64,000 nucleotides of DNA from an uncultured Lentisphaerota bacterium (GTDB lineage: Bacteria; Verrucomicrobiota; Kiritimatiellia; RFP12; UBA1067): the NCBI GenBank assembly GCA_900320225.1, contig ONRL01000002.1, forward strand, positions 3,236-67,235. The letters are read 5' to 3'. Both the position numbers and the translations under genes were made by a program. Within the stretch, counting starts at the first letter, position 1. Each line of letters begins with the position of its first letter. Below are positions 39,023-59,664 of the stretch, in pieces. The notes under the pieces are model-generated. The model had not been told where the DNA came from, did not search any database, and saw only the letters and a list, made by a program, of their open reading frames with translations.

Positions 39023-39151
39023 ATGAGGATTTATATTTCTGGTTGTATGACGGACCATCCCGACATCAACTGCCCCGCGTTCAGCGCGGAGGAGTTCGTG
39101 CCGACGCCGCATCCGAAGCCGAGGTTCCAGCAGGAGGAGCTGTTCAAATGA
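39023..39151 (+). pseudogene. 42-codon remnant resembling the N-terminus of a DUF4406 (deoxyribosyltransferase-like) protein
   Basis: MRIYISGCMTDHPDINCPAFSA matches the family's opening (M.IYI.GPMtG.p..N.paF.a). The rest of the fold is absent. Confidence 0.35.
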
Positions 39152-41800: not shown

Positions 41801-41824
41801 CAACAACCCTAAAGGAGCATGCAA

Positions 41825-42367
41825 ATGAAACAAGCACTAATAATACTCGCCGCATTTGTCGGCATAACACTAATCGCCGTCTGCGCCGTTTTCTCGTCGA
41901 AGAATGCGGCCGTCTCGCTGGAGGAAACCGTCAACGCGGCGAAGTCCGGCATAGACGTGCAGCTCACAAACCGCTTCAACAAGTTCCACGAACTCGCGGC
42001 GTGCGTCAAGAAATACGACGAACACGAGTACAAGACGCTCGTGGACGTCATCGAGCGCCGCGGTCGGAACATGAGCGGAGCGGAGGCAAAGCAGTGCATT
42101 GCGGCGTTCTCGCGCGTGGAGGAGCGCTACCCAGACCTCAAGTCGCAGGCCAACTACAAACAGCTGATGACCGAGGTCGCGCTCACGGAAAACCACCTGG
42201 CACAACACAAGAAGGCGTACAACGAATCCGTGCGTGACTACCGCTACCACTGCCGCAAGTTCCCCACATCCATCTTCCTCGGATGGACGGGCTACGAGGT
42301 GCAGACCTACGAGATGTACGCAGCGGACGAGGCCGTGAAGGACTCAAAACCCCTCGACCTGTTCTGA
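41825..42367 (+). CDS. lemA: LemA-family membrane protein (180 aa)
   Basis: N-terminal TM helix. GIDVQLTNRFNKFHELAACVKKYDEHEYKTLVDVIERR...RYPDLKSQANYKQLMTEVALTENHLAQHKKAYNESVRDYR matches the LemA pattern. RBS AAAGGAGC. Confidence 0.75.
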   Translation: MKQALIILAAFVGITLIAVCAVFSSKNAAVSLEETVNAAKSGIDVQLTNRFNKFHELAACVKKYDEHEYKTLVDVIERRGRNMSGAEAKQCIAAFSRVEERYPDLKSQANYKQLMTEVALTENHLAQHKKAYNESVRDYRYHCRKFPTSIFLGWTGYEVQTYEMYAADEAVKDSKPLDLF

Positions 42368-44092: not shown

Positions 44093-45325
44093 ATGGAGTT
44101 AGCCATGTTTCGTTCAAAACGCGAGGTCCTTTCATCCATCAGGGAACACAAGTTCACCAAGGGCGGGAAAGAGTATACCATATTCTCGGCCTTCTTGGGA
44201 AGGGATCCGATATCGAACAAAGGCAAGCGCGTCGCTCGCTCCGACAAGAACGAGCTCAGGCAGTACATCTCAGACTTTTACACCCGGCTCGACAAGGGTG
44301 GAGACAACGCCGTGCAGCTGGATCATGCGCAGTCCGCGGACGCCCACGCCGCATACGGGCTCATGGCGCAGTTCGGGCTGCAGATGACCCTTGCCGACGT
44401 GGTGCGCGCATACGCGACGCAGAAGGCGTACGGCGAACTTAAAGGCGACTGCAAGACGTCCGTGGGCGAAGCCTGGCACAGATACTCCGGCACTCTGTGG
44501 ACCAAGAGCGAGGCCTACCGCAAGTGCGTGACGAGCCGAATAGGCGCCTGGGTGCATTGCTTCGGCGAGAACCGGCTCCTGTCCGAAGTCTCAGCCTCGG
44601 AGCTGAAGGAATACCTCATGGACAAAGTCTTCCGACCGGAAAAGCCGGACACGGCGAAGACCTACAACAACGTCCTTGGCGACATCAAGACGTTCATCCA
44701 CTGGTGCTGCGCGAAGGAACAGGACCTTCTGGCGGTCGATCCTCTCGACGGCATGAAGAAGATGGAAATCGGGTACCGCCAGCCGGAATACATGAAGGCG
44801 GCGGATGTGGAGAAGTTGTTCCGCGTACTCGAGGCGCGCAAGGAGAAGCGGCCGGAAAACCTGGCCGACGCGATCCTGTCGTTCTTCTGCGGCGTCAGGC
44901 AGTGCGAGATAGCGCGCGTCCGAGAAGGCGAGAGCGCAGTGAAAATCAGCCTGGAGGACCACTTCATCCGCATAGTGAAGGTCAAGGGCTCGCTCCGCGG
45001 CATCCGCCCCCGCGCGTTCAAGATACCAGCGCAGGCCGAGGCATGGATGCGCTCGTTCGACTTCATGGCCGCAGTGCAGATCCCCAACACGGCGTTCCGC
45101 TACCACCTGAACATGGCCGCGAAGAAAGCCGGTATAAAGATGCCGAAGAACGCCGGGCGCCACACCTTCATAACGATGTACGAGGCGGCACACCACGACA
45201 CCAATGCGCTCTCCGGCATAGTCGGCAACACCGAAGGCGTCCGGTCGCGCTCCTACAACGGCGTCGAGCTGGAGCGCGAGGGACGGGCCTACTTCGAGAT
45301 TATGCCTACTTCTTCGGCCTCATGA
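44093..45325 (+). CDS. int: Tyrosine recombinase / phage integrase (410 aa)
   Basis: Catalytic-domain signatures are FFCGVRQCEI (Arg I), VKVKGS (Lys), NAGRHTFITMY (H/R box) and GVRSRSYNGV (Tyr). It adjoins the att-like site. An alternative start lies at 44105. Confidence 0.8.
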   Translation: MELAMFRSKREVLSSIREHKFTKGGKEYTIFSAFLGRDPISNKGKRVARSDKNELRQYISDFYTRLDKGGDNAVQLDHAQSADAHAAYGLMAQFGLQMTLADVVRAYATQKAYGELKGDCKTSVGEAWHRYSGTLWTKSEAYRKCVTSRIGAWVHCFGENRLLSEVSASELKEYLMDKVFRPEKPDTAKTYNNVLGDIKTFIHWCCAKEQDLLAVDPLDGMKKMEIGYRQPEYMKAADVEKLFRVLEARKEKRPENLADAILSFFCGVRQCEIARVREGESAVKISLEDHFIRIVKVKGSLRGIRPRAFKIPAQAEAWMRSFDFMAAVQIPNTAFRYHLNMAAKKAGIKMPKNAGRHTFITMYEAAHHDTNALSGIVGNTEGVRSRSYNGVELEREGRAYFEIMPTSSAS

Positions 45326-48300
45326 GGTCTATGACCTGCTGCTGGTAGCGAAGGCGCGTCTTCTCGTACTTCTTCTTGGTGGCCTCCGAGGGGTTGCGCT
45401 TCCTCACCCAGCGGCCGCCTTCGCGCTCTTCGCCGTCCTCCCAGTGGCGCAGCGTCCTGATGTCGTTCAGGAGCTTCCTGATCTTCTCGTCGCGGCGCGA
45501 GCCGGCCTTGATCGTGCCATCGGCGCGGTCCACCTTGTAGCGGCGCTCCGCCTCGTAGAAGTTGTGCGCATTGTCCGGTACGTCGCGCACATAGTCGCGC
45601 CAGAAGGGGATATGCGAATTGTCGAGGTCCTTGCCCTCCTTCAGGTCCGTCACGAAGTCCGACACAGTCGTTATGTCGCGGCCCAGGTTCTTCAACGCCG
45701 AGTCCACTACGAACTTGTAGTTCTCGGGGGAGTAGTCAAACCACCCACGGCGCCTCTCGTTGCCGCCCGTGAGCTTGTTCATCCCGCGCGCCATGGACTT
45801 CCAGACGTCGCCGGTCTGCTTGCGCCCGTTCTCGGAGTACGGTTTCGTCTCTGAGAACATCTGCTTGCGGATCGGACGCCCGGCGTAGTCCTCGTTGCCC
45901 TTCAGCTGATAGAACGGCACCAGAAGCGTCGGAAGGAGCGACTGTACAGGCGTATCGCTGTTGAAGTCTCCAGTGCCGGTGAAGTGCATCCCGGAGTCAA
46001 GCGCCTCCTTGCCGATATGCTTTGCCGCATCCGCCCCGGAAATGTCACCGAGCGCCGCCCGCGCCGCGAGGTTGCCGGCGTACTTCAACACCGAGAACGG
46101 CCCAGCGTGGAACGGCACGCGGATGAACTTGTCCCCCATGCGGAAGTAGAGGGAGTTCGCCCGCTGGAACTCCGTCATGGTCTCGCCCGACGGCTCGCCG
46201 CTCTTCCTGGCCTTCTTGTCGTCGTCTGCGTTGAAGAAGTGCTCGGCCATCGCCTCCATGACGCCGTAGGTGAAAAGCGCCATAGCCAACTGGCGGCCAT
46301 GCTTGCCCGTGGCAAGGGACGCCGTCTGGCGGATCGCGCCGCCTATGACCGAGCCGGAGAACATCCATGCCGAGTTCATCCAGCGCTGGTTGCCGTACTT
46401 GTTGAAGTCGGTCGAGTATTCGCGCGAACGCATCGCCGCCTCGCCGTCCGAGGCGCCGCCGTCAATGTAGTCCTTGAACACAGCAAGGCGCGTCGCAAGC
46501 TCGCCCTGCTTGTTGATCTCGGAGATGCCGCGCCCGACGAACCGCAGTACGTCCATGACGCCGTGTTTGCCCGAGGCCACCTTGCCGAGGTCGTTCTTCA
46601 GCTCCGTGTAGCCCTCGTTGCCCATGCCGCCAATCGACGCGCCCGACTCGACGTAGCGGCGCATGACGTCGGCATAAGGCCCCTCGAACTTGCCGGTCTT
46701 GATGTACTTGCGGATCGTCCCCGCCATACGCACAGCGTTCGCGACGTTCCTCACGGCGGACACGCCGCCGCGGATGACACCCTTGTCGGCCATCGTATTC
46801 AGGGACGCCTCGAGCATGTCGGCGGCGAAGTTGCGCCCAAGGAACGCCGGCGAAAGCTCCGTCGCCGTGGAAGCGTAGCCGCGGGTAAAAGCCGCCACGG
46901 GTTTCCACATATTCTGGACCCCGCGTCCAATGACGGCCTCCGCAACGCGCTCGCCCTGTTTGCCGTTCAGCTCGATCATGTAGAGGTTGCCGCCCTCCTT
47001 GAATGCCACGAGGTTCGGACGCCCCGAGCCGCCCTTCACGGTCTGCTCGTGGTAGTTGGGATCCGGGAAGTCCTCGATCTGCTTGTGCGTGAAGCTCCAT
47101 GCCTTGCCGCGGCGGACACCCTTGCGTACCTTGCCTACGCCCGGCGTGGAGCGCACGAAGTCCGCCAGGACGCGACGGGCCTCGTTGATGTTCGAGCCAT
47201 ACATCGCGTCCTGGTACTCCTTGAACATGAACTCCACGGGGTTGTCTGGCAGCGTGTAGCGCCCGTTCGCCTCCTTGAAGTCGCTTCTGCGCCACTGCCG
47301 CGTGGAGCGGTTGTATTCGCCGCCCTCGTCGGAGAGGTCGTCGCGCATCGGGACGTGGAACGGCTCCTCCTTGCGCCACTGGTCCGCCGTCTCGCGGGCG
47401 ACGCGCCCGGATTCGACGCGGCGCTCCATGCCCTCGTCCTGCATCTTCCAGAGGAAATTAGCCATCTCCTCGATCTTGGCAACCTTGTCGGCACCGAGAT
47501 GCGAACGGAGGTCGGAGAGTATCTTCGCCGCGTCGGCGTCCGAAAGGCCCGCGCCGTCAAGCGTGCCCGAGCGCTCCATCACCTTGCGATTGCGGTCTTT
47601 CGCATTCGTGGCGATCATGTACATGCCGACGTCGTCAACGGTCGCGCCGGACTTGCGGAGCATGTCCTCGAAGGGGCGCTTCCATATCTTCTCGTAGCGC
47701 TGGCGCGCCGCCTCGTTGTGGCCGTGCAGAAGACGCATGGCGTTGTACGGCGAGTTCTCGGCGTACAGGTCCTTCTTGTCGCGTCTGCCGGTGGCGATTT
47801 CCATCTTCTTGATGGGGTCGTAGCGGTCGGCGAGTTCCGTTTTCGCCTTCTCCGCGATGGTCGTCTTGCGGTCCGCCGCGGGGGCGACGGGCTCCGGCTC
47901 CTTCGGCTCGCCGTCGGGGCGGATGCGCGCGCGGTTCGCGTCGTCGATCTGCGTCATGTCCTCGGCGACGTTGTGGCGGTCGGCGGTCTCCCAGGGGGCC
48001 GTCTTGCCGCGCTCCTCGGCGGACATCCTGGCGCGCGTGGCGGCCTGGCGGGCCTCCCACTCGCCGTGTTCCTGCGTGTAGCGCCCGAACGACTTGCCGT
48101 CGGTGTTCGTGCCGCCGGCCATGCCGGACGCCGCCTGTATGCGGTGCTGGAGCTCGTGGTTCAGCGTCTCGGCGGTCGTGCCGCGCTCGTAGAGGTGTAT
48201 CTTCCCCTTCGTCGCGTAGCCGAGCGTGCCGTCCTTCGGCTGCTCCGCCTTGCGGTCAACCTCGATCGTCTCCTTGCCGAGCCTCGGGTAGGCGGCGAGG

Positions 48301-51300
48301 AGTGTCTTGACGGAATCCGGCAGGCGCTCGCCCTTCGCCTTCATCGCGGCCTCAAGGTCGTTGAGCGTGAAGGAGTAGGTGTTCGCCCTGTCCCTGTCGT
48401 AGAACTTGCCGGACGCAAGCGCGAAGTCGAGCATGCGCTTCGTGTCGGCGTCGCTGATGCCGGCGATCTCGTAGCGCCACTTGCCGTCCTTCGCCCTCCA
48501 CCAGCCGGTCTTCTCCCAGATTTCGCGGCGCCCCGCTCCGGCGCCCTCCATGCGCTCCGCCTCGTCGCGGCCCTTCGCGTGGACGCGCCGCCCGGCCTCC
48601 TCGTCGATGTTGAAGAACCGAAGGTTGCCCGTGTCGCCGATCTTCTCGTCGTCGCGGTAGAGGTTTGCCGGGTGCTTCTCGATGATCTTCCGCAGTTTCG
48701 CCGCGTCGGGCTCCATGAAGATGCGCTTCTTGGAGACCTCGCCCCCGAGCTCCTTTGCCACGGCGTCTATTTGCCCCGGCTCCACTCCGCGCACCATCAC
48801 CTTCTTCGCGCCGTCACGCGGCACCTGCTTGAGCGTCCAGCCATTCACAAGGTCAACCGTGCGGTTGTTCAGCACCTCGCGAACCTTGCCGTCGATCACC
48901 ATGTCCCGCGCCTCCTGGGCCTTGCCGAAGCGCCCGAAGACGGCGGGTATCTCGTCCGTGTCGATCTTCGCGCCGATGTACTCTGGCGCGTCGCCCGCCT
49001 TGACGCGGAACGTTCGCGGTGGCTTGGAGCCGAGGACGTCGTTCCAGTGCTTCAGGAGGTCTCCCGTCGCGTAGAAGCCGTCGTCCGCCCTCTCCTCGGG
49101 TATGACGCCGTACTCCGCGTCCCAGAGCTCCTTCGCCTTCGCCGTATCAAGTTTCTCGTATGCGGCATTCGGCTTCTCCGTATCGAGTATGGACGCCTTC
49201 ATGCGCTTCTTCGTGCCGTCCACGGCAAAGCGCATCGCGGCAGGCTCCTGGCGCTTGCCCATCTTGCCGTCGGCGCGGACGGCGAACGTCTCGCCGGTGC
49301 GCTTGTTGCGGACGTATGTCAGGAACTCCGCCGCATGGTCGCGCGCGAAGTCGTCGAACGGGACCTTGTCGGTCTTGAACCACGAGTTGACGTGCTGCAC
49401 GTCCATGTCGTCGGCGAGCTTCACCGAGCGAACGGCGTCGTTGTGCGTGGAGCCGATGTCCTGGAGCCCGATGTCGTACTCGCCGTCCTCCTTCGCCCAG
49501 CGGATGTTCTGGTCGAGGAGGTTCTTGAACGCCGTGAACATGCCGTCCTGCTTCTTCGGGTCCAGCATGAGAAGCCGGTTGAGGAATCGCTTGGCGGAGA
49601 CGTCGGGGACGGTTGCCCCGCTCTTGTCGCGCTTGAGCATCCCGTTCACCTCAACCACGGAGCCGTCGGGGCGCTGCACGCGCTTCACAAAGTTCATGTC
49701 GCGCGCGATGTCGTCGAGCTTGCCCATCTTGTGGAGCATGGCGATAATCTGATCCACGGCCTGCTGCGCGTACTTCGTTTCGAAGTTGTCGCCTTCGCTC
49801 GTTATGCCGTTGCCGGTCGCGGCGCGGTCGCCTGTCGTAAGCGCCTTCATCTGGCCGCGGCGGCGCTCCACCGAGGAGTAGAAGCGCCTCTCTCCCGGGA
49901 GGTCCGTCGTGCTCGTCACGTATATCGGCGCATTCGCCTGGTTGTTGCGGTGGACGCGCCCGAGGGTCTGCTCAAGCTCGTCAGCGCGGTAGCCCAGCTG
50001 AAGCGGGAACGCCACGCGGCGCGCTTGGTTCTTGTACTTGCGGTCGGACGAGAACGTGTATCCCGTGTTCGCCACGCCGGAGAAGACAAGCACCTTCTTG
50101 TCGCCGTTCTGGAACGCGCGGTAGTCCTCGGCCATGCCGCCCTTGTTGAGCCCGGTGAGGTTCGCCACGTTGTCCTTGCCAAAGGCGTCGATTATCATGT
50201 TGATCGGGTTGCCGAAGGTGTCCGGCAGCTTCTCCACCTCGCGGACGAGCCGCCTGCGGATGCCGTCGGCAATCGGGTCGCGCTCGAACCCCACGACTTC
50301 ACCGCTCTGGTCCTTGACCGGCTTCATCGTCGGGAACTGGTAGTCCTTGTACGCACCCTCCTGCTTCTGGTAGGTCTTGTCCCCCTCCTTCGTGAGGAAG
50401 TCCAGGAGAATCTGCTTCGGGCCGAAGTTGACTTCGTCCATGCCGAGCTGACGCCCCTCTTCGAGCGCCTTGGCAACCTCGCGCGTCGATCCCGCCTCGT
50501 TCGTGTTGACGAGCGAGAACACCGGCGCGTTGCCCTTGGCGAGCTCCTTCTTGGCGCGTTCGATGAGCGCCGGGATCTTGAGCGCCGTCACCATTGAGTA
50601 GTGGAGTCGCTGCTGCATACCGTGGAGCGACGACGGCGGCACGGTGTAGTCCAGCCGCCCGAGGACCTCAAGCGCGTCGTACACGCCCCGGTAGACGTCC
50701 GAGAGCGCGTGATTGTACTCCGTATAGGTCCGCTTCTGCGCTTCCGTCGTGGGTACGGCGACATGGTCGAACTCAACACCCTCCTTCGAGAGGTTTGCCG
50801 AGAGGTACTGCCCGCGGCGCTTCAGCGTCTGGGCGACCATCTCCATTGCGGAGACGCCCTTGCCCTCGACCTTCTTCTTGAAGTCCTCGAAGTCCTTGAA
50901 CGGCGTGCCCTCGCCCCAAAGCCCGAGGCGCGTGGCGTAGCCGAGGTTGCCGACGTCCGTTGCGCCGGTCGCCGACATGTAGATTACGCGCGCCTTCGGC
51001 AGAAGCTCCTGGAGCTTCACTACGGCGTCCTGCGTGCGCCCGCCCTCCGTCTTGGCGCGGTGAATCTCGTCGAACGCGATGACGCCGTCGAAGTCCTTGC
51101 CGAGCTCATTGGCGATCTTCTCGACAACGCCTTCGTTGCGGATGTCGGAGTAGGTCGTGAATCCGATGCCGTCCTTCGGCATGGGCTTGTCGCCGATGTC
51201 CTCCACCAGCCCTTCCATGCCGAACGGCTTCACCTCGCTGCGGACGTCGTCGATGAGGCCGCGCTGCGTGGTTATCCACAGCGCCCTCTTGCGCCCGCGC

Positions 51301-54300
51301 CAGCGGTTGTCCAGGATGGTGCCCGCGATCATGCGGCTCTTGCCGGCGCCCGTGCCGTACCCGCCCATCATGCCGAGCGGCGAGCCGTTTGCGTCCTTCA
51401 TCCCGTGGGCACGCCCCGCGTAGCCGACGAACTCGAGCTGGTGCTCCTGCAGGTCGCCGTTCTTGATGTGCTTCTCGGGGATCATCAGCTTGTACTTGTT
51501 GTCCGGCGGCTCCGTCGCCCGGAGCGCAGGCGGCTCCTCAAGGAGCGTGCGGCTCTTCACCGCGCCCGGCACCTTGTACTTCGCTGGGGCATACTGGCGC
51601 TTGTCGAAGTCTCCCGCCTCCTCGGCCTTGTCGAAGAAGCGCGTGCCCTGATCGGCCTCTCCCGCGCGGATCGCGTCCCGCTCCGCCTGTGTGAGCCCGC
51701 GGTTGACTAGGCCCTCGTCGTGGAGCGCCGAAAGCGACATCTTCATGTCCTCGACCTTGGTCGGGGCGTAGCGGTTCGCGCCCGGCGTCTTCACGCGCAC
51801 GGTGGCCGTGCCGTCGCCGTTGTCCTGCAGGAACGTAGCCTCGCGCATGTTGCCGGCGGCGTTCTTGAACATGACGACCTGACCGCGCTCGAAGGCGGGT
51901 TTCGCCGGAGCCGCTTCCGTCGCGGGGATGGTCCTGTTGAACAGGTCCTCGCCCTCCGCTCCGCCGAGATCGAGCAGCCCCTGCCCCGTCTCCATGCTGC
52001 CGCCCTTCAGAGGCGCGTCCATGCGGCGCTGAAGCGCCTCGCGCTCACGCAGCCTCCGGGCTTCGTCGTTTATCTGGCCTTGCGTCACGCTCTCCAGCGC
52101 GAAGTCAGGCCGTGCGGGAGTCTCGCCTTCCTTCGGCGCGGACGGCTCCATGCCGAGGTCCTTCTCCATCTGCGCCCGCAGGTCGGGGTCGAGGTTGATG
52201 GACTCCCAGCGCATCTTTTCGAGTGTGGCCTTGTCGATGGCCTTCTGGAGCTCCGCCTCCTTCGCCTTGCCGCCTTCCGCGATCTTGCGCTCGTTGATGC
52301 CGAGGGCGCGCATGTCCTCGCGGAGTATCTTCTTCTTCACAAGGTCGTTCTCGCGCGAACGCTGGACCTCGCGGAGGCTCTTGGCAAGCCGCGAATACTT
52401 CGCCGCCTGTTCCGAGCGGTACTTCTCGGCCTTCTCGGCCGCCTTCTCCACGGTGTCGTCGCCAAAGAAGTCGAACGCCATCTGCTCGACGCCGTCCGCC
52501 TCCCTCTTCATGGCCGCCAGGTGCTTGGCCTCGCTGGCCTTGATGCCGAGGTCGCGCCTGTCCAAGGTGGGGTCGCGCAGGACGGACTTCAACAAATAAC
52601 GCTGGAGGTCGGCGTTCGCCTTCCCTTCGCCGATCGGCGCAATCTCCGCTATCGCGGCCGCCTGTTCCGGCTTTATCTTGCCCTCTACGCGCCCGCCCTC
52701 GAAGTTGACGGAGGCGCGAAGGTCTTCCGTGGCGTCGTTGGCGATGGCGTATGCCTGCCGCGCTTCCTTCGATCCGAGGAAGCCCTCGCGCTCCGCCTCG
52801 GCGCGCGGAATCTTGACGTCGCCGAAGAACGCCACGTAGTCCTCTGTCGAGCCCTTGCTGTCCTGGATGTTGTCCAAGGCGTCGAGGAGCCGGATTTTCG
52901 TGAAGTCGTAGGTGCCGTCGGGCTTCTTCGTCACCCAGCCATCGGCCTCGCGCACGCGGCGCATGGGTATGTCCATGCCGTAGCGCTCGTAAAGCTCCTT
53001 CCTGTGCCGCCCGGTGCCGACGGACACCGTGCCGTCCTCGAACTCCACGCCGAGGATCGGCTTGGAGAGAAGCGAACGGGGACGTCCCTTCAGCTCGTTC
53101 CCGGGGACGATGCCCGTCTTCGGGTCGGCCGCAAGCTTGGTGTTGGGCACGCGGGCGTCGCTGCTGTCCAGCTTCGCCGCCGGGTACATCTCCACGTCGA
53201 TGTCCTGAAGCGCCGCCTGGAGCGCGTTGATGCCGGAAATGTCCCGCACGTTGCGCCCCTCGTCCGCGCTCCTGATGGCGTCCCGCGCCTCGTAGTCGCC
53301 CACGCGGTCGAAAAGGCCCGTGGTCTCCGCGGCGTAATTCCACAGGCGGCGCAGTCCGTCCTTCTGCTCGGCGTACCAGGCGGGGTTCGCCGCCTTGAAC
53401 ATCTTGGCAAAGTCGTAGAATCCGCGGATCTTCTTCTGGTCGTACAGGGCGGCAATGTCCCGCACCAACTCCCAGTTCTTGTCGCGGCGGTCCGAGCCCA
53501 GTTCCTCGTTCACGTCGAAGAACTTCGCCGAGGGGTCCGTAAGCCCCCAGCGGCTCATTATGTCGCGGATATCCCGAGACTCGCCGCCAGACGGCGAATT
53601 TCGACCCTCCGCGCCCTCCGCGCGTTCGGGACGGGTCATCGCACCCTCCGCGCCAGCCTCGCTCCTAGGGGCTTCTACAGGCGTTTCCTGGGGCATGTCG
53701 CCAAAAAGGCCTGCAAGCGCGTCCTCCGCAGCCCTTACGCCGTCGCCCAAGCGCCCTTCGTTGGCGTGGTGGACTACCACTCCCTCGCTCGGCGCTTCTG
53801 CTCCCTCCGGCTCTGCTTCCACAGGTCGCGGCGCTTCCCCGCCTTCCTGTCGCCCAGAAGCCCCTTGTTCGGGTTGCGCCGGTGCTTCATCGGCTCTACG
53901 CCCTGCCTCATCTGCGGTCTCCTTTCTTGCCTGCTCCTCGACCCGGACGAGTTCAGCCTCCATAGCCTTCTCCGCCTCCTTGCCGTAGGGCAGTCCAAAA
54001 TGGTCGTGTATCTGGCGCCGCACGGCACGGATAGCGGCCATGCCGTCCTTCTTTGGCTTCGTGGTGGACGCAATAAGCGTCTCCGTGCCGTCGTTTGCGA
54101 CTGCGTTGACATCCCAGCCAATGACCTTGCCGTTGCCGTCGGTGACGCGCCGGGCGACGATCTGGTTGCCGTTCGGTCCGTAGCTGGCCCGAAGGACATC
54201 GCCTTGCGATGAAGTGCGTTCCTTGCCCTGGGGCGCCTCCGGCTCCACGGCTATGCGCGGAAGGACGCTTGCGTTGTCCTCGGCCTCACGGCGCTTCCGC

Positions 54301-57300
54301 TCCTCCTCGGCGCGGTCGAACTTCTCGGCCCTCCTTGCGTCGTCCTCGCGAAGCGCCTCCTTGACGGCGTTTTTGCGGTCTAGGCGCGCCTGTGCGTCCG
54401 CCGCCTCATAGCCCGCCCTCCTCTGCGCCTCGCGCTCCTGGGCCCGATTTTCGCGCTCCTGCGCCGCGCGAACTGCCTCCGCTTCGGCGTTCTCCTTGGC
54501 TATCGCCCTCTCCCGCGCCCTGCGCTCGGTGATTTCGCGGCGGCGGCGCTGGTACTCCTCGCGCTTCGCCATGTCGGACTCGCGCTCCTCGGCGTCGATG
54601 AGCTGCTGGAGCTCCGCCTCGTCCCGCGCGTCCTGCTCCTCCCTGCGCTCGCGCTCGATACGCTGGCGCTCCTGCTCTTCGTAGTCTGCAGCTTCCTGGC
54701 GCTGCCTTGCTCGCTCTTCTTGGCCTCTGCGGGTTGCCGCGCGGCGGTCGCGCTCTTCGCCGATCTGATCCGCGAACTCTTTTTCAGCCGCCCTGAATCC
54801 AACCCTGTGACCCGTGCGGGCAGCGTCAACTTCGCCCTGCAATCGTTCGGCGCTCGCGCTGTCAGGAAGTGCGCGGAGCGTCGGCGTCGGGGGATTCGGC
54901 GGCTCGGGCTCGTAGTAGAAGTTCCCGCCAGTCTGCTCGGCAAGCTTGTTCATCGCGCCCCGGTACACCTCCTCCGCCTCCGAGCGGCTGTACGAGAGAC
55001 CATTGAACACCTTGCGGAGATTGCGCCGCAGGACGTTCACATGCTCGTCCCACCAGCCGGGCTCATCCGGGACGTCTTCGCGGTCAAAGAGGTGCGCGTA
55101 CACTTCCTCCAGCGCGTTGGCGTGGAGATAGTTGCCATCCTTGTCGCGCTTGAATATCTCCTCGGGGCGCTCGATTTCGCCACGCGCCATCCGCGCCCCG
55201 ACGATGCGGTTCAACTGATTCTGCACAACGGGGTCCCCGCTACGAGCAAGCCCCGCGACGAAGCCGATCTTGTCGGCAGGCGTTTCAAATGCCACATCAA
55301 GTCCGCGATGACGCCCCGCCTCGTGTAGGACGTTGCGTTTCATCTGCTGCGGCGTCTCCATTCGGTCGAGGCAGTACACTGTCGTACCGTCAGGAAGCGT
55401 AACGGCTTGTTCGCCGGGCGACGACCTGTGGGGTCTGCCAGTACCCTCGGAAACAATCTTGTCGAACTCCGCCCCGTCCTTCGCGGCATAGAAGTCCACT
55501 CCTCCGAGCCTGTACTGGTCGCGAAAGTTCTTGAGAGCCGCCGCCTTGGCATCGCGCTCCGAGGCGGTCTTCTGTCCGAGTCTGCTCATGGCGTTCGCTG
55601 CCTCAAAGGCATCCTCCGCGCCGTAGCGGGTCGCCCTGCGCCCGTTGCCGTCCTCCACGAGGTATATGCTCCTCCCGTCGGCCTTCGACGCGTCCAGCGG
55701 CCACTTCGTGACGGATATGCCAGTGTTGGCGTCCGTGAAGGTCTTGCCTGCTATGCTCACTCCGTCGCCAACAGGAATTTCCACGTCCTGCCATGCCACT
55801 TCGCTTGTAGTCCGCATCTTGCCGTTTTCGTCCGGCTTGCCGAGCGTCAAGGTTCTGGGAACCCTGAACTGCGACTGGAACGATCCCGCATTGGAGCGTT
55901 CCCATCCCGCCGAGTTGTCAAACTGGAGGGCATACTTCCCGGCCTGCTCGAACGCCTGGCCGGCCTCCATGCCAAGCTTCTTGCCAACTTTGTCGCACCA
56001 ATTGCGCAGACGCTCCTCGAAGGTCCCCTTCTCCGTGACCTCTCCATTGACGACGCGAACCCTGTCGTACCGTTCGCCCTTGAAGTTTCTGCCGTGCTGT
56101 TGCTCGCGGCGCAGCGTCCTTGCGCCGTCCACGTCGCCGCCAAAGGCATCCTCGCCGCTGTACAGCCTGTCGCCGATGCGAACAAGCCAGCGCTTTAGGT
56201 CCGGATTCATCTGGTCCAACTGCTCCTGTGGTATCTTGAACGCCCCCTGGAGCCGACGGTCGTATGAGGCCTTTTGGGCGCGAGCGTCGCGCCAGGTCCT
56301 CATGCCCGCAGTTCCGGCCTGGAAGAGCATCACGCCGAGCGCGCCGACAAACAGGTCAGTCTGTCCCTTGAGCGAGAGCACGCCAGGGACGTGCGTCCCA
56401 TCCGGCAGATCCTCGCCGTTGGTGAACTTATCCCACTCCTTCGAAAGCCCCTCGTACTCGGAGTCCTTCTTGCCGTAGCCGAGCACCTGGTCCTTGAAGG
56501 TGTTGAGGTCCATGAGGGCGAGCATCTGCGGCTGTCCGCGCAGACCCGTGAGCTGTCCGTACTTCACATAGTTCTCGTACAGCCCCTTCACGGCAGGAGC
56601 GGCCTTCCGCGCCCATGCGGCATCCGCCCCGCGGAGACCCTTTATAGACTTGCCGATTACGCCGGGCGCCCAGCCGAACGCCGCCTCGCCGATTGGAAGC
56701 GAGAATATCGCCGCCTCGCCGAAACCGCCCTTCGCCGCCTTGGCGAGAGCCTTCTCGGGATCGTCGCCCGGAATCACCTCCAACTCACCTGTTTCGGGGT
56801 TCTGATGGTATTCCGGCGCCGTCAGCTCCTTGTAGCGGCGGCGCGTCATCTCGGCGCCCATAACCGGCGTCATCCACGCGGAATGCGCCAGCCCCGCAAC
56901 CACGCGTCCGCGCCATGTAGCCTGAACCGCCTTGGCGCCGATGCCGAGGGCCTTGCCCGCCGCGCCGGTAAGAGCGAACTCCTCCATCATCGGGATCATG
57001 CCGAGGGTGCCGCCGCCGACCTTGCCCCAGAAACCCTCTTCGCCGGCCGCGGCCATGCGCCTCTGCGCCTCGCCCTTCTTCGCCGCGCGCTCGCCGAACC
57101 TGGCGCGTGCGATGTTGGCGAAGTATTCGTTCATCTTCTCGGCGTCGCCCTGCGAGTATTCGCGGGCCTTCTCGATGTCCGCTTCGCTTATGCGGGCGTC
57201 GCGCGCGTAGTTCTCCAGCACGTCCGTCATGTACTCGGCGGTCGCCATCCGCGCAGCGCCGCGCACGCCCTCCACGGCAAGACCGACAACCGGAAGATTC

Positions 57301-57734
57301 GTGGCCACGGCGGACGCCCGGCTTGTGTCCTCTGCGCTGGCGTCCTTGGCCTTGTAGCCCCGTAGCATGTAGTTCGTCTGGAGGAGACGCCTGTCCTCGG
57401 CGTCGCGCAGCGCGGAGCGATCCAGAAATGCGGCAAGGTTCCTATCCTCGGTGAGGTCCATGCCCTCTCGCGTGGCTCGGACGCCGGGGAGCAGGCCTTC
57501 CGCATAGACTTGCCCTGCCGACGCGTCACGGCCCGTCCGCGCCGTGATCTCGTCCTGCCGGCGCTCCGTGAAGCCGTAGTTGGAGTCAGAATTTTGCCTA
57601 TTTGCGCCGTCCGTGGCGTCGCTGCGTTCTGCCTCGTCGGCAAAAAGTGAAGTGTAGCCATCGCCGATCGCGGAACGAATACCAGTATCAACGGGTTCCG
57701 CCTCGTCGGCAAAGAGCGAAGAATACTCTGCCAT
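45306..57734 (-). CDS. Giant polyvalent protein (4,142 aa), probably virion-associated
   Basis: A single uninterrupted 12.4-kb ORF, the last gene of the late operon. Its 3' end overlaps the int stop by 20 nt (convergent). Motif-level domain calls are listed as separate features. Confidence 0.85.
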   Translation of the reverse strand: MAEYSSLFADEAEPVDTGIRSAIGDGYTSLFADEAERSDATDGANRQNSDSNYGFTERRQDEITARTGRDASAGQVYAEGLLPGVRATREGMDLTEDRNLAAFLDRSALRDAEDRRLLQTNYMLRGYKAKDASAEDTSRASAVATNLPVVGLAVEGVRGAARMATAEYMTDVLENYARDARISEADIEKAREYSQGDAEKMNEYFANIARARFGERAAKKGEAQRRMAAAGEEGFWGKVGGGTLGMIPMMEEFALTGAAGKALGIGAKAVQATWRGRVVAGLAHSAWMTPVMGAEMTRRRYKELTAPEYHQNPETGELEVIPGDDPEKALAKAAKGGFGEAAIFSLPIGEAAFGWAPGVIGKSIKGLRGADAAWARKAAPAVKGLYENYVKYGQLTGLRGQPQMLALMDLNTFKDQVLGYGKKDSEYEGLSKEWDKFTNGEDLPDGTHVPGVLSLKGQTDLFVGALGVMLFQAGTAGMRTWRDARAQKASYDRRLQGAFKIPQEQLDQMNPDLKRWLVRIGDRLYSGEDAFGGDVDGARTLRREQQHGRNFKGERYDRVRVVNGEVTEKGTFEERLRNWCDKVGKKLGMEAGQAFEQAGKYALQFDNSAGWERSNAGSFQSQFRVPRTLTLGKPDENGKMRTTSEVAWQDVEIPVGDGVSIAGKTFTDANTGISVTKWPLDASKADGRSIYLVEDGNGRRATRYGAEDAFEAANAMSRLGQKTASERDAKAAALKNFRDQYRLGGVDFYAAKDGAEFDKIVSEGTGRPHRSSPGEQAVTLPDGTTVYCLDRMETPQQMKRNVLHEAGRHRGLDVAFETPADKIGFVAGLARSGDPVVQNQLNRIVGARMARGEIERPEEIFKRDKDGNYLHANALEEVYAHLFDREDVPDEPGWWDEHVNVLRRNLRKVFNGLSYSRSEAEEVYRGAMNKLAEQTGGNFYYEPEPPNPPTPTLRALPDSASAERLQGEVDAARTGHRVGFRAAEKEFADQIGEERDRRAATRRGQEERARQRQEAADYEEQERQRIERERREEQDARDEAELQQLIDAEERESDMAKREEYQRRRREITERRARERAIAKENAEAEAVRAAQERENRAQEREAQRRAGYEAADAQARLDRKNAVKEALREDDARRAEKFDRAEEERKRREAEDNASVLPRIAVEPEAPQGKERTSSQGDVLRASYGPNGNQIVARRVTDGNGKVIGWDVNAVANDGTETLIASTTKPKKDGMAAIRAVRRQIHDHFGLPYGKEAEKAMEAELVRVEEQARKETADEAGRRADEAPAQPEQGASGRQEGGEAPRPVEAEPEGAEAPSEGVVVHHANEGRLGDGVRAAEDALAGLFGDMPQETPVEAPRSEAGAEGAMTRPERAEGAEGRNSPSGGESRDIRDIMSRWGLTDPSAKFFDVNEELGSDRRDKNWELVRDIAALYDQKKIRGFYDFAKMFKAANPAWYAEQKDGLRRLWNYAAETTGLFDRVGDYEARDAIRSADEGRNVRDISGINALQAALQDIDVEMYPAAKLDSSDARVPNTKLAADPKTGIVPGNELKGRPRSLLSKPILGVEFEDGTVSVGTGRHRKELYERYGMDIPMRRVREADGWVTKKPDGTYDFTKIRLLDALDNIQDSKGSTEDYVAFFGDVKIPRAEAEREGFLGSKEARQAYAIANDATEDLRASVNFEGGRVEGKIKPEQAAAIAEIAPIGEGKANADLQRYLLKSVLRDPTLDRRDLGIKASEAKHLAAMKREADGVEQMAFDFFGDDTVEKAAEKAEKYRSEQAAKYSRLAKSLREVQRSRENDLVKKKILREDMRALGINERKIAEGGKAKEAELQKAIDKATLEKMRWESINLDPDLRAQMEKDLGMEPSAPKEGETPARPDFALESVTQGQINDEARRLREREALQRRMDAPLKGGSMETGQGLLDLGGAEGEDLFNRTIPATEAAPAKPAFERGQVVMFKNAAGNMREATFLQDNGDGTATVRVKTPGANRYAPTKVEDMKMSLSALHDEGLVNRGLTQAERDAIRAGEADQGTRFFDKAEEAGDFDKRQYAPAKYKVPGAVKSRTLLEEPPALRATEPPDNKYKLMIPEKHIKNGDLQEHQLEFVGYAGRAHGMKDANGSPLGMMGGYGTGAGKSRMIAGTILDNRWRGRKRALWITTQRGLIDDVRSEVKPFGMEGLVEDIGDKPMPKDGIGFTTYSDIRNEGVVEKIANELGKDFDGVIAFDEIHRAKTEGGRTQDAVVKLQELLPKARVIYMSATGATDVGNLGYATRLGLWGEGTPFKDFEDFKKKVEGKGVSAMEMVAQTLKRRGQYLSANLSKEGVEFDHVAVPTTEAQKRTYTEYNHALSDVYRGVYDALEVLGRLDYTVPPSSLHGMQQRLHYSMVTALKIPALIERAKKELAKGNAPVFSLVNTNEAGSTREVAKALEEGRQLGMDEVNFGPKQILLDFLTKEGDKTYQKQEGAYKDYQFPTMKPVKDQSGEVVGFERDPIADGIRRRLVREVEKLPDTFGNPINMIIDAFGKDNVANLTGLNKGGMAEDYRAFQNGDKKVLVFSGVANTGYTFSSDRKYKNQARRVAFPLQLGYRADELEQTLGRVHRNNQANAPIYVTSTTDLPGERRFYSSVERRRGQMKALTTGDRAATGNGITSEGDNFETKYAQQAVDQIIAMLHKMGKLDDIARDMNFVKRVQRPDGSVVEVNGMLKRDKSGATVPDVSAKRFLNRLLMLDPKKQDGMFTAFKNLLDQNIRWAKEDGEYDIGLQDIGSTHNDAVRSVKLADDMDVQHVNSWFKTDKVPFDDFARDHAAEFLTYVRNKRTGETFAVRADGKMGKRQEPAAMRFAVDGTKKRMKASILDTEKPNAAYEKLDTAKAKELWDAEYGVIPEERADDGFYATGDLLKHWNDVLGSKPPRTFRVKAGDAPEYIGAKIDTDEIPAVFGRFGKAQEARDMVIDGKVREVLNNRTVDLVNGWTLKQVPRDGAKKVMVRGVEPGQIDAVAKELGGEVSKKRIFMEPDAAKLRKIIEKHPANLYRDDEKIGDTGNLRFFNIDEEAGRRVHAKGRDEAERMEGAGAGRREIWEKTGWWRAKDGKWRYEIAGISDADTKRMLDFALASGKFYDRDRANTYSFTLNDLEAAMKAKGERLPDSVKTLLAAYPRLGKETIEVDRKAEQPKDGTLGYATKGKIHLYERGTTAETLNHELQHRIQAASGMAGGTNTDGKSFGRYTQEHGEWEARQAATRARMSAEERGKTAPWETADRHNVAEDMTQIDDANRARIRPDGEPKEPEPVAPAADRKTTIAEKAKTELADRYDPIKKMEIATGRRDKKDLYAENSPYNAMRLLHGHNEAARQRYEKIWKRPFEDMLRKSGATVDDVGMYMIATNAKDRNRKVMERSGTLDGAGLSDADAAKILSDLRSHLGADKVAKIEEMANFLWKMQDEGMERRVESGRVARETADQWRKEEPFHVPMRDDLSDEGGEYNRSTRQWRRSDFKEANGRYTLPDNPVEFMFKEYQDAMYGSNINEARRVLADFVRSTPGVGKVRKGVRRGKAWSFTHKQIEDFPDPNYHEQTVKGGSGRPNLVAFKEGGNLYMIELNGKQGERVAEAVIGRGVQNMWKPVAAFTRGYASTATELSPAFLGRNFAADMLEASLNTMADKGVIRGGVSAVRNVANAVRMAGTIRKYIKTGKFEGPYADVMRRYVESGASIGGMGNEGYTELKNDLGKVASGKHGVMDVLRFVGRGISEINKQGELATRLAVFKDYIDGGASDGEAAMRSREYSTDFNKYGNQRWMNSAWMFSGSVIGGAIRQTASLATGKHGRQLAMALFTYGVMEAMAEHFFNADDDKKARKSGEPSGETMTEFQRANSLYFRMGDKFIRVPFHAGPFSVLKYAGNLAARAALGDISGADAAKHIGKEALDSGMHFTGTGDFNSDTPVQSLLPTLLVPFYQLKGNEDYAGRPIRKQMFSETKPYSENGRKQTGDVWKSMARGMNKLTGGNERRRGWFDYSPENYKFVVDSALKNLGRDITTVSDFVTDLKEGKDLDNSHIPFWRDYVRDVPDNAHNFYEAERRYKVDRADGTIKAGSRRDEKIRKLLNDIRTLRHWEDGEEREGGRWVRKRNPSEATKKKYEKTRLRYQQQVIDLMRPKK
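47985..48524 (-). other. HExxH zincin-like metallopeptidase module within the giant protein (about residues 3071-3250)
   Basis: EIWEKTGWWRAKDGKWRYEI...GKIHLYERGTTAETLNHELQHRIQAASG...HGEWEARQAA. The HELQH motif lies at residues 3193-3197 (nt 48135-48164). Confidence 0.5.
49785..51467 (-). other. Strawberry-notch-type (AAA_34 + Helicase_C_4) SF2 helicase module within the giant protein (about residues 2090-2650)
   Basis: Walker A GYGTGAGKSR (residues 2125-2134), motif II AFDEIHRAK and MSATGATDVGNLGYATRLGLWG. LGRVHRNNQANAPIYVTSTTDLPGERRFYSSVERRRGQMKALTTGDRA (from residue 2591) parallels the SBNO consensus ...GRTHRSNQ..P.Y....T.L.GE.RF.S.VAKRL..LGALT.GDR. Confidence 0.7.
52860..53147 (-). other. 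ParB/sulfiredoxin-like domain within the giant protein (about residues 1530-1625)
   Basis: ...SKPILGVEFEDGTVSVGTGRHRKELYERYGMDIPMRRV. The GxGRHR box (residues 1573-1578, nt 52992-53018) resembles the ParB N-terminal-domain DGxHR motif. Confidence 0.45.
54215..54770 (-). other. Glu/Arg/Ala-rich low-complexity helical spacer within the giant protein (about residues 990-1170)
   Basis: RRGQEERARQRQEAADYEEQERQRIERERREEQDARDEAELQQLIDAEERE...EERKRREAEDNAS. Confidence 0.7.
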
Positions 57735-59647: not shown

Positions 59648-59664
59648 GTGGCACCTCCCTTTGG

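Follow-up and report, generated by a model that had tools for sequence, protein, structure and literature searches.

A giant phage-type polyvalent protein with a plasmid-type Strawberry-notch helicase module on an LPD38 scaffold

The DNA analyzed here (64,000 nucleotides, referred to as the window) carries a gene for a phage-type polyvalent protein of 4,142 aa (positions 45306..57734, minus strand, ATG start). It is the final gene of the virion module and ends a minus-strand block of portal, major head, virion structural, and tail-fibre-like genes of a portal-terminase-type phage. Convergent with it lies an integrase-like gene (410-aa ORF; 44093..45325, plus strand), given here for context only, which matched PHROG 1 (E 4.8e-10) and PHROG 216 (E 2.3e-8) and had no Pfam match; the 3' ends of the two overlap by 20 nt. 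An initial annotation of the window, made from the letters alone, had described one uninterrupted ORF at 45306-57734 that closes the late operon and converges on int, and this description was borne out by the single 4142-aa minus-strand frame in the ORF listing, the virion block upstream, and the PHROG integrase match of the opposing ORF. The replication module occupies about 24-41 kb on the opposite strand. Homologous giants in four groups of isolated phages (Vibrio, Stx, Ralstonia, and Pseudomonas) likewise stand last in their virion blocks. Distant kinship of the window's portal with the portals of HMO-2011-type podophages suggests a short tail, and the phage is probably a short-tailed temperate one. 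It is known from metagenomes only. A scan of genome contigs with the whole giant protein found no relative; when a narrower alignment was used, 14 loci came up, most of them in MAGs of Kiritimatiellae, Lentisphaerae, and Verrucomicrobiales, which as a pointer to the phage host are only a hint.

ORF length alone is no proof of a gene at this locus, because long antisense shadow ORFs (up to 1537 aa) occur in this 65% GC DNA. Such spurious frames, and three word-indexed homolog searches on pieces of the protein that gave one fragment each (P0001-P0003), would fit an assembly chimera, or else a pseudogene (fused or degenerate) mimicking a single ORF in high-GC DNA, a reading to which we assign a negligible probability. 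The minus-strand frame is backed by Pfam matches to E 1.7e-70. The same 4142-aa product was found on at least 10 contigs from at least two sequencing samples (including ENA ERZ27279860 and Logan ERR2027896), which speaks against both a chimera and hidden stop codons. Full-length collinear homologs were recovered (L005/P0005, 4437 aa; P0007, 4822 aa; P0006, 3366 aa), collinear homologs at 42-66% identity are free of stops over more than 4,000 residues, the catalytic motifs are intact, and relatives keep the same module order. The giant ORF is a real gene, and every motif that the initial annotation had listed for its product was found at the residue given.

Relatives were collected by exhaustive HMMER search of sequence clusters, and the distribution of modules was mapped by local jackhmmer among 148 relatives. 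The whole 4,142-aa protein matched the Pfam families AAA_34, Helicase_C_4, LPD23, and LPD38. When ten single-sequence tiles were scanned against Pfam, no family of the ParB, zincin, MuF, ART, or nuclease kind was matched at E up to 10; a weak crAss_CARG1 match in that scan (E 0.46) was taken as chance. The sole family returned by a PHROG search was the unannotated giant family 14770. A blastn search with 4 kb of the gene against phage genomes gave zero matches, and phmmer with the whole protein against PDB sequences gave no meaningful match. PADLOC models matched 0 families at E up to 0.001, and a defence system was rejected on this result and on the virion gene context.

The protein opens with a tandem-duplicated acidic peptide (residues 4-37, YSSLFADEAEP and YTSLFADEAER; 57624..57725, minus strand; motif reading), in which SLFADEAE starts at residues 6 and 29. 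A duplicated acidic/aromatic peptide of 6-18 aa within the first 90 residues occurs in 15 of 23 family members, compared with 3.9% of control windows, and may serve as a capsid-targeting or docking signal. A conserved N-terminal module follows (residues 50-520; 56175..57587, minus strand), present in 22/148 relatives (jackhmmer) and N-terminal in all 22, with no Pfam match and no counterpart in deposited phages. Its Gly/Ala-rich segments (residues 139-160, 342-360, and 452-478) are moderately hydrophobic (Kyte-Doolittle, 1.1-1.3), and a hydropathy analysis of the giant protein found no segment hydrophobic enough for a classical transmembrane helix.

The next module (residues 600-990; 54765..55937, minus strand; 30/148 relatives by jackhmmer) contains an HExxxH motif, HEAGRH (residues 804-809; nt 55308-55325), with an invariant Glu (E877) downstream. 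The motif is kept in 20 of the 30 relatives that have the module, and in its alignment (A6) the sole invariant columns are H, E, H, and E, the last Glu lying 73 residues downstream. A profile of the module found no relative in PDB or Pfam. At the level of the motif, residues 600-990 are a putative second zincin-like peptidase, in agreement with the HEXXXH zincin variant described previously (Iyer 2017, PMC5512222). They are followed by a Glu/Arg/Lys-rich low-complexity spacer recognized by composition (residues 990-1170; 54225..54767, minus strand; 57% E/R/K/D over residues 1001-1100), also present in P0005, P0006, and P0007 and probably a coiled coil, and by an unassigned region conserved in a subset of relatives (residues 1170-1500; 53235..54227, minus strand; 19/148 by jackhmmer), to which fragment P0002 is 64% identical and which has no Pfam match. 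The SLFADEAE duplication at the extreme N terminus, the hydrophobic Gly-rich segments, and the Glu/Arg-rich spacer had all been picked out in the initial annotation.

Residues 1500-1900 (52035..53237, minus strand) were assigned to a ParB/Srx-fold domain with a helical extension using AlphaFold, Foldseek, and profiles. The call rests on relatives and a structural model, the protein's own sequence being below the Pfam threshold: the tile covering residues 1480-1720 matched no Pfam ParB family even at E up to 10, and 9 of 21 relatives touched ParB_N weakly (best E 0.0016). The AlphaFold model had a pLDDT of 88.1 and a pTM of 0.76, and its top 32 Foldseek matches in the PDB were all Noc, ParB, Spo0J, Srx, PadC, SbnI, or Atu1540 (CDP-bound ParB included), at probabilities up to 1.0 and TM-scores of just 0.2-0.48. 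A profile of the core matched SbnI, Noc, and Srx. TGRHR (residues 1574-1578, nt 53001-53015; GTGRHR from 1573) is invariant across 21 divergent sequences and aligns with DGVHR of SbnI. The core was matched by 341 representative clusters (HMMER) and was found in 147/148 relatives by jackhmmer, and it is the near-universal core of the family; its helical extension (residues 1625-1900) is common to about 130 relatives. Pfam matches of the window's tile and of the 21 relatives included no DdrB-like ParB family, for which the Pfam copy used may lack a model.

Downstream of the core, EQMAFDFFGDD (residues 1752-1762; 52449..52481, minus strand) is a degenerate copy of a peptide, Q-L-D-L-F-G-x-D-D, defined by column counts in 138 relatives (Q, 106; D, 114; L, 120; F, 134; G, 102). 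A loose QLDLF-type motif occurs in 106/143 relatives, against a background of 4.5%. The consensus clamp-binding motif is QLDLF (PMC11139829), and by its sequence the family's peptide resembles a beta-clamp-binding motif. The linker that follows (residues 1900-2050; 51585..52037, minus strand) contains another conserved "DLF" peptide along with a small beta-rich domain (VRVKTPGANRYAPT), recognized by reading homolog sequences by eye. One speculative proposal, to which we give a low probability, is that the TGRHR core, together with the QLDLF-G-x-D-D peptide that comes about 170 residues later, forms a previously unnoticed host-docking device: once ejected, the protein or a fragment freed by its peptidases would attach to the host beta sliding clamp and be loaded on DNA as an NTP-gated ParB-like clamp. 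If so, the cargo (here, the SBNO translocase described below) would be brought to replication forks or to the incoming genome, and phage polyvalent proteins would be clamp-targeted effectors, a mechanism absent from the class-defining paper.

The giant product might instead be a cytoplasmic late or lysogeny protein that stays out of the virion and serves the phage genome in replication, partition, or maintenance, with the ParB-like domain in partition or silencing and the helicase as a replication factor; the fold matches to chromosomal ParB, Noc, and Spo0J, the clamp-binding-like peptide after the ParB domain in most relatives, and the adjoining integrase are in keeping with this. We regard it as very improbable: the gene closes the virion block, outside the replication module and on the other strand, and the C-terminal module with LPD38 (below) ties the protein to virion proteins. 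A partition-type ParB was itself rejected on the late-operon position and on finding no ParA-like gene among 20 neighbouring ORFs scanned; ParB domains of polyvalent proteins occur without ParA partners (Iyer 2017, PMC5512222), and with an integrase present a plasmid-prophage partition system is not needed.

Residues 2050-3030 (48645..51587, minus strand) make up a complete Strawberry-notch (SBNO) SF2 ATPase, identified by Pfam and plasmid homologs. AAA_34 matched residues 2065-2338 (E 1.7e-70; profile positions 6-305 of 306) and Helicase_C_4 matched residues 2536-2759 (E 5e-52), and the SBNO motifs are intact (Walker A GTGAGKSR at 2127, DEIH at 2222, GRVHRNNQ at 2592, GERRF at 2614, and ALTTGDR at 2631). 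The module aligned at 95-100% coverage with plasmid "strawberry notch family" proteins, C-terminal extension included; at least 80% of it is covered by 341 plasmid records, the listed best matches being annotated "strawberry notch family protein." It matched 575 plasmids, more than half of them predicted to be conjugative, and had zero matches among 50,697 phage records, and it was found in 7/148 relatives of the giant protein. A plasmid-type SBNO module sits on a phage scaffold. Polyvalent Strawberry-notch proteins of conjugative plasmids are the closest relatives of residues 2050-3030; one of them, from MEALZ_p of Methylotuvimicrobium alcaliphilum (WP_014133156.1; 2,547 aa), is 31% identical over 95% of the module (E 7e-111) and is also a polyvalent, DNA-delivered giant, its gene adjoining those for a relaxase and a coupling protein; unlike the window's protein, it belongs to a conjugative element and has no LPD38 module and no virion genes around it. 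No methylase Pfam match and no NPPF/NPPY motif was found in the window's giant, and an NPPF-type methylase motif lies about 340 residues upstream of Walker A in 5 of the 7 SBNO-bearing relatives.

LPD23 and then a zincin-like metallopeptidase occupy residues 3040-3290 (47865..48617, minus strand), as assigned by Pfam and by profiles of relatives. LPD23 scored E 1.8e-10 (40.8 bits; cut-off, 27). HELQH (residues 3193-3197) is the sole HExxH in the 4142-aa protein and is followed about 30 residues downstream by GEWEAR. At least 473 relatives were found in viral contigs, and in an alignment of 15 sequences (26-34% identical to the window's) H151, E152, H155, E183, E185, and R187 are invariant, giving HExxH plus ExEAR. 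In Pfam, 9 of the 15 matched DUF6782 putative metallopeptidase (best E 8.9e-10), 4 matched Peptidase_M78, and 3 matched SprT-like families; the window's own region matched LPD23 only and fell below the threshold for every peptidase family. The zincin profile also matched IrrE (E 0.033) via the HExxH helix.

The remainder of the protein is a mostly alpha-helical C-terminal module (residues 3290-4142; 45309..47867, minus strand), recognized by Pfam and PHROG, that contains LPD38 (E 2e-23; 83.8 bits; cut-off, 27) and matched PHROG 14770 (E 1.8e-53). This module of about 850 residues is common to giants of Vibrio, Stx, and Ralstonia phages and was found in 44/148 relatives, C-terminal every time. 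Its AlphaFold model was of low confidence (pLDDT, 65) and had no match in the PDB (best E 0.55), where transporter-like names among the results were treated as noise; 65 BFVD matches were obtained, including one to a protein of phage PTXU04, and in BFVD matches the same C-terminal module is joined to lysozyme, RelA/SpoT, or methylase cargo. It is a probable packaging/ejection module, and given so weak a model a conduit role would be a guess.

The giant gene product belongs to an already described class, the phage-type polyvalent proteins, which are defined by 2-15 unrelated domains per polypeptide, hub domains included (Iyer 2017, PMC5512222). An SBNO ATPase, a ParB/Srx fold, and a zincin lie within one 4142-aa ORF; LPD38 and LPD23 both score above their Pfam cut-offs; and the gene shares strand and block with virion genes. 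LPD38 is exclusive to phage-type polyvalent proteins, in which fusions of a metallopeptidase, a SWI2/SNF2 ATPase, "a distinct ParB domain," and LPDs have been described, with Strawberry-notch ATPases reported "in a few instances" and illustrated by a Methylomonas protein (Iyer 2017, PMC5512222). The window's protein has the same hub domains and LPDs, among late genes of a portal-terminase phage; it differs in carrying the rarely reported SBNO, without a methylase partner, and in a TGRHR core that matched no DdrB-like Pfam model.

The initial annotation had likewise read the product as a multi-domain polyvalent protein with ParB-like, SBNO, and HELQH zincin modules, and all of these calls hold: the first through the agreement of predicted fold, invariant TGRHR, and family profiles, the second through two strong Pfam domains and collinearity with plasmid SBNO proteins, and the third through conserved ligands and relatives that match metallopeptidase families. 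Its proposal of a new counter-defence delivery system does not stand, as LPD38 and LPD23 (E 2e-10) are families defined for polyvalent proteins, nor does the statement that no described phage protein has such a combination, given the published metallopeptidase-SWI2/SNF2-ParB-LPD fusions, a few with SBNO. That well over half of the protein matches nothing was overstated: residues 2650-3030 are part of SBNO, 1625-1900 are the ParB extension, the last 850 aa are shared with other giants, and 50-990 comprise two conserved modules, one present in 22 relatives and the other in 30. The exact protein has not been described before, and its module combination is unusual and not a new kind of system.

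With the homologs that have been studied by experiment the protein shares similarity only in its C-terminal module, where identity is 22-24%. Giants closing the virion block are found in Stx phages, namely, phi24B gp47 (2811 aa) and its homologs in 933W, VT2-Sakai (H0150), and Shigella phage 75/02 (gp68); they share an LPD38 module of about 750 residues (residues 3292-4044 of the window's protein versus 1891-2680; 22.7% identity; E 8e-37). For phi24B gp47, which is annotated with LPD5, LPD1, and MuF-C and has no ParB core and no helicase, the C-terminal module alone is shared. It is abundant in virions by mass spectrometry and absent from the cryo-EM map, and the phi24B authors proposed it as an encapsidated ejection protein. 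The C-terminal model also matched PTXU04_00025 of Escherichia phage PTXU04 structurally (BFVD A0A482MT02_2; E 2e-13; probability, 1.0); this protein (2,198 aa) is half the giant's size, with LPD38 only and no annotated enzymatic domains, and its knock-down impairs infection, making it the only homolog with a loss-of-function phenotype. One Pseudomonas homolog is annotated "structural protein," and Ralstonia giants with the same C-terminal module are annotated "DarB-like antirestriction."

P1 DarB, named in the initial annotation as the classical precedent, is an apt comparison: this large, head-internal SF2 ATPase protein enters the host along with the DNA, which it protects in cis (Iyer 2017, PMC5512222). 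The giant protein has no N6-adenine methylase domain and its helicase is of the SBNO type. A DarB-type methylase-helicase dyad was rejected, there being no methylase Pfam match and no NPPF/NPPY; the protein is not a member of the DarB dyad family and, by analogy, may work like DarB, although the absence of the methylase partner expected of such a mechanism counts against that reading. A further giant enzyme, the virion RNA polymerase of phage N4 (about 3,500 aa), is encapsidated and leaves via a short tail with ejection proteins (PMC13434306), and it carries a fused zincin peptidase domain (Iyer 2017, PMC5512222); an N4-like virion RNA polymerase was rejected here because Pfam detected no polymerase domain.

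We consider it likely that the giant protein is made late, packed in the capsid, and expelled into the host with the DNA, acting as a scaffold that carries exchangeable cargo. The scaffold would consist of the acidic N-terminal duplicate, the Gly-rich module, and the LPD38 module of about 850 residues, and would probably give encapsidation and envelope passage or conduit formation; its termini, where present in relatives, are always terminal, and the central slot varies, holding SBNO in 7 relatives and a methylase plus SNF2 in others. The interior enzymes would act on DNA during the first minutes of infection, with the ParB/Srx domain (TGRHR) probably serving as an NTP-dependent DNA-binding or nicking module and SBNO as a complete SF2 translocase acting on DNA. 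The zincins (HELQH, supported; HEAGRH, putative) may release working units from the polyprotein by cleavage or have envelope or host proteins as their targets. Virion presence and a requirement in infection are taken by analogy from the homolog literature; we infer that this particular protein is packaged and ejected and that it may protect incoming DNA from host defences. For polyvalent proteins other than P1 Dar, an anti-defence role is a prediction.

An alternative use of the same parts, unlikely in our estimate and the most probable of the alternatives discussed here, is that the protein is chiefly a machine for ejection and genome internalization and not an anti-defence weapon. Its termini would form a trans-envelope conduit, its peptidase would open the cell wall (a suggestion of the phi24B authors), and a ParB-like clamp with an SBNO double-stranded DNA translocase would pull the genome in, comparable to transcription by the N4 virion or T7 RNA polymerase. 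LPD38 giants do resemble essential infection proteins (the PTXU04 knock-down and the phi24B gp47 proposal), SWI2/SNF2-type ATPases move along duplex DNA (Iyer 2017, PMC5512222), the portal suggests a short-tailed phage in need of ejection proteins, and a ParB core present in almost all relatives fits a core mechanical part better than variable counter-defence cargo. However, the slot that SBNO fills in only 7 of the 148 relatives is taken elsewhere by methylase-SNF2, kinases, or ART-like domains, or is helicase-free, which means that the family as a whole cannot depend on a translocase; no helicase is annotated in phi24B gp47 or PTXU04_00025, and the giant protein has no strongly hydrophobic helices. 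The reading of a packaged scaffold with exchangeable cargo is the one that we prefer.

Few phage gene products are as large or as poorly understood as polyvalent proteins, and work in two recent studies suggests that giants of the LPD38 type abound in virions and are needed for infection. The giant protein reveals no new class of system. The layout of its family comprises a conserved N- and C-terminal scaffold, exchangeable enzymatic cargo, and an invariant ParB/Srx core in 341 clusters, and the protein raises cheap hypotheses (clamp binding by QLDLF, NTP binding by the TGRHR domain, and self-processing by the two zincin-like modules) that are open to tests in culturable relatives, including phi24B, PTXU04, and 37-kb Vibrio phages. 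The SBNO graft is direct evidence of module exchange between plasmids and phages, two kinds of DNA-delivering elements.

The giant gene (positions 45306 to 57734, minus strand) is a single uninterrupted, ATG-initiated open reading frame (ORF) of 4,142 codons. All motifs listed in the initial annotation were found in place (SLFADEAE at residues 6 and 29, GTGRHR at 1573, GTGAGKSR at 2127, DEIH at 2222, GRVHRNNQ at 2592, GERRF at 2614, ALTTGDR at 2631, and HELQH, the sole HExxH of the protein, at 3193), as were the Glu/Arg-rich spacer (57% charged residues over residues 1001 to 1100) and the moderately hydrophobic, Gly/Ala-rich N-terminal segments. Because the DNA here is 65% GC and the antisense of the gene shows long shadow ORFs (longest, 1,537 amino acids), ORF length alone is weak evidence; the minus-strand frame is supported by Pfam matches down to an E value of 1.7e-70, collinear homologs of 3,366 to 4,822 amino acids, and an identical 4,142-amino-acid product on at least 10 contigs, with reads from at least two sequencing samples. 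These data argue against a chimera or hidden stops, and the chance that the protein is an artefact is negligible. The shadow ORFs (e.g., 45984 to 50597, plus strand) are a by-product of GC content and codon bias, not genes to annotate. The protein has only two cysteines in all 4,142 residues, and although it contains several Gly/Ala-rich hydrophobic patches, nowhere does it reach the hydrophobicity of a classical transmembrane helix; both properties would be compatible with threading through a narrow channel.

The window is a phage genome. The giant gene closes a minus-strand block encoding an SU10-like portal, a major head protein, a virion structural protein, and tail-fibre-like proteins, and it was correctly described as ending the late operon and converging on int: an integrase-like ORF (44093 to 45325, plus strand) overlaps its 3' end by 20 nt. 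A weak match to PHROG integrase families (E value, 4.8e-10) and the lack of a Pfam match mark this ORF as a predicted, divergent integrase. The portal is distantly related (20 to 28% identity) to those of HMO-2011-type short-tailed phages. A 548-amino-acid ORF adjoining the portal (12741 to 14387, minus strand) occupies the expected large-terminase position, and two ORFs of 788 amino acids (617 in the contig look-up) and 365 amino acids lie immediately upstream of the giant gene (57794 to 60762, minus strand); none of the three had a Pfam or PHROG match at E values up to 0.001, which argues for a very divergent phage lineage. Also upstream of the giant gene in the virion block is a probable tail fibre or adhesin of 989 amino acids (60929 to 63898, minus strand). 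It has Listeria-Bacteroides (Flg_new) and InlB B-repeat domains, and these repeats are consistent with a host-associated (gut) habitat.

Replication and accessory genes occupy the plus-strand block; they encode an AAA_24 ATPase, an SF2 helicase, an AAA_25 helicase/primase-like protein, two DNA methylases, a Tad2-like protein, and a LemA protein. The SF2 helicase (27347 to 30070, plus strand; ResIII/SNF2-like and Helicase_C) is split by an intein that combines a Hint domain with a LAGLIDADG homing endonuclease (Pfam Hom_end_hint, Hom_end, and LAGLIDADG_3). A 301-amino-acid protein (40705 to 41610, plus strand) with a Tad2-like (Thoeris anti-defence 2) domain (E value, 1.6e-20), adjoined by an N6_N4 methylase (39043 to 40680) and a LemA-family protein (41819 to 42367), is a candidate stand-alone anti-defence gene of the same phage, separate from the giant protein.

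The reading of the giant as a polyvalent protein was right. Iyer et al. (2017; PMC5512222) described single polypeptides of 2 to 15 domains in which a metallopeptidase is fused with SWI2/SNF2 ATPases, “a distinct ParB domain,” and large polyvalent protein associated domains (LPDs), occasionally with a Strawberry-notch-like ATPase, and with LPD38 restricted to the phage type. Both the class with its LPD signatures and domain combinations of this type were already described, so the proposal of a new counter-defence delivery system was not borne out; the observation is confirmed and its interpretation partly supported.

Local iterative searches among 148 relatives gave a layout of an N-terminal module (residues 50 to 520; 22 relatives), a second module (residues 600 to 990; 30 relatives), a ParB core (147 relatives), a variable central slot, and a C-terminal module (residues 3290 to 4142; 44 relatives, always at the C terminus). 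The N terminus bears a duplicated peptide, YSSLFADEAEP/YTSLFADEAER (57624 to 57725, minus strand; residues 4 to 37). A tandem-duplicated acidic/aromatic peptide, differing in sequence, occurs in the first 90 residues of 15 of 23 N-terminal-module relatives versus 3.9% of controls; judged from these sequences, the duplication is a family trait, and it may serve in capsid targeting or docking.

The C-terminal module matched LPD38 (Pfam; E value, 2e-23) and PHROG 14770 (E value, 1.8e-53) and is common to giants of Vibrio phages (3,130 amino acids), Stx-converting phages (2,793 amino acids, annotated “LPD5 domain-containing protein”), and Ralstonia phages (4,511 amino acids, annotated “DarB-like antirestriction”); the likeness of a Pseudomonas Hollowayvirus “structural protein” is limited to the LPD23-zincin piece. 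Its AlphaFold model (mainly helical; modest confidence, pLDDT 65) had no relative in the PDB and matched 65 entries of a viral predicted-structure library (E values down to 1e-27), and nearly all the named entries are terminal segments of “large polyvalent protein” giants, some of them with lysozyme, RelA/SpoT, or methylase cargo. The homologous giant gp47 of Stx phage phi24B is abundant in virions (mass spectrometry), invisible in the cryo-EM map, and a proposed encapsidated ejection protein, and knock-down of a 2,198-amino-acid LPD38-only protein of coliphage PTXU04, which matches our C-terminal model, impaired infection. By analogy with such homologs, which share only the C-terminal module (~22% identity), the giant protein would be present in virions and required for infection; we infer its packaging and any anti-defence role.

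An exhaustive HMMER search with residues 1150 to 2064 matched 341 representative clusters, nearly all giant proteins, with a common core at ~1514 to 1870. Among 21 aligned divergent members, T-G-R-H-R was invariant; a second invariant block, D-x-x-x-N-I-x-D-x-x-G, is presumably the counterpart, by position, of ParB’s ENLQR nucleotide-binding box. The six best PDB sequence matches of the profile were SbnI, Noc, and sulfiredoxin, matched through the strand-GxHR-helix element, and Pfam ParB_N was touched by 9 of the 21 members. With the AlphaFold model of the core (pLDDT 88.1), the top 32 Foldseek matches in the PDB were all ParB/Srx-superfamily proteins (probability up to 1.0), with modest TM-scores (0.2 to 0.48) that argue for superfamily membership and not a close relationship. 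The ParB-like box was thus confirmed at the fold level through models, profiles, and relatives; the window’s own sequence had no match to Pfam ParB models. The main rival reading, a giant that is chiefly an ejection and DNA-internalisation machine, is one that we consider rather unlikely. It is favoured by the near-universal ParB core and by the essentiality of LPD38 giants; that helicases are rare in the family speaks against a required translocase.

Across 138 aligned relatives, a peptide ~170 residues beyond TGRHR follows the consensus Q-[L/G/M]-D-L-F-G-x-[D/E]-[D/E] (column counts: Q, 106; D, 114; L, 120; F, 134; G, 102), most commonly as QLDLF. A loose form is present in 106 of 143 relatives versus 4.5% of control windows. 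For the beta sliding clamp, QLDLF is both the consensus binding motif and the strongest binder, with acidic flanks favouring binding (PMC11139829); the clamp is not mentioned by Iyer et al. (PMC5512222). Since the window’s own copy is degenerate (EQMAFDFFGDD; 52449 to 52481, minus strand; residues 1752 to 1762), the putative clamp-binding peptide is a lead for the family, not a finding on this protein. That a clamp-docking ParB device is common to the family is improbable. A cytoplasmic role of the giant protein in replication or partition is unlikely.

The SBNO helicase call was confirmed and extended to a module at residues 2050 to 3030, with Pfam AAA_34 (residues 2065 to 2338; E value, 1.7e-70) and Helicase_C_4 (residues 2536 to 2759; E value, 5e-52). 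The module aligned along its whole length (coverage, 95 to 100%; identity, ~29 to 31%) with “strawberry notch family” plasmid proteins, so residues 2650 to 3070, left unassigned in the initial annotation, belong to that family’s C-terminal extension. Matches were found on 575 plasmids, 303 of them predicted conjugative (best among the plasmid matches listed, a 2,547-amino-acid giant encoded next to relaxase and coupling-protein genes on a conjugative plasmid), versus zero by tblastn among 50,697 deposited phage genomes; a module that is plasmid-only in these annotated collections therefore sits on a phage scaffold. An N6-adenine methylase (NPPF) lies ~340 residues upstream in five of seven SBNO-bearing relatives and is absent from the window’s protein and from two homologous giants (P0005 and P0007). 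For this reason, methylation in the manner of DarB is not applicable as such. Residues 1170 to 1500, between spacer and ParB core, and the linker just before the SBNO module (residues 1900 to 2050) are conserved in some relatives. In the linker (51585 to 52037, minus strand), another conserved “DLF” peptide (…PLKGGSMETGQGLLDLGGAEGEDLFNR…), the second in the protein, occurs together with a putative small beta-rich domain (…VRVKTPGANRYAPT…), and both are common to several homologous giants (P0008 to P0011).

Viral contigs contain at least 473 relatives of the LPD23 and HELQH module (residues 3040 to 3290), in which H, E, H and a downstream G-E-x-E-A-R are invariant across 15 aligned sequences. 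Nine of 15 relatives matched Pfam DUF6782, “putative metallopeptidase” (best E value, 8.9e-10), others matched Peptidase_M78/IrrE or SprT-like, and the best PDB matches of the profile were IrrE metallopeptidases, aligned via the HExxH helix; the zincin call is thus supported through relatives. Another motif, HEAGRH (55308 to 55325, minus strand; residues 804 to 809), lies in the 600 to 990 module, where HExxxH is kept in 20 of 30 relatives. The only invariant columns in a 12-sequence alignment were H, E, H and a Glu 73 residues downstream, a predicted zincin ligand set that fits the “HEXXXH” metallopeptidase variant of Iyer et al. (PMC5512222). As it has no PDB or Pfam relative, this module, which the initial annotation did not list, is rated a putative second, HExxxH-type metallopeptidase.

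No close relatives of the giant protein were found in 185,579 species-representative genomes. Among deposited phages, the N-terminal 1,000 residues had no match and the ParB core matched only six records; the lineage is essentially metagenomic. The nearest genomic carriers of the TGRHR/ParB-core family were mostly Kiritimatiellae, Lentisphaerae, and Verrucomicrobiales metagenome-assembled genomes from animal gut (rumen, caecum, and colon), a tentative hint of the host lineage of this phage group and no assignment.

Alongside the observed domain identities, family membership, and gene position, we consider it fairly probable that the giant is a scaffold-and-cargo protein. Its termini would serve encapsidation and exit or conduit functions, its interior enzymes would act on DNA directly after entry, and its peptidase modules may process the polyprotein or cleave proteins of the envelope or host.
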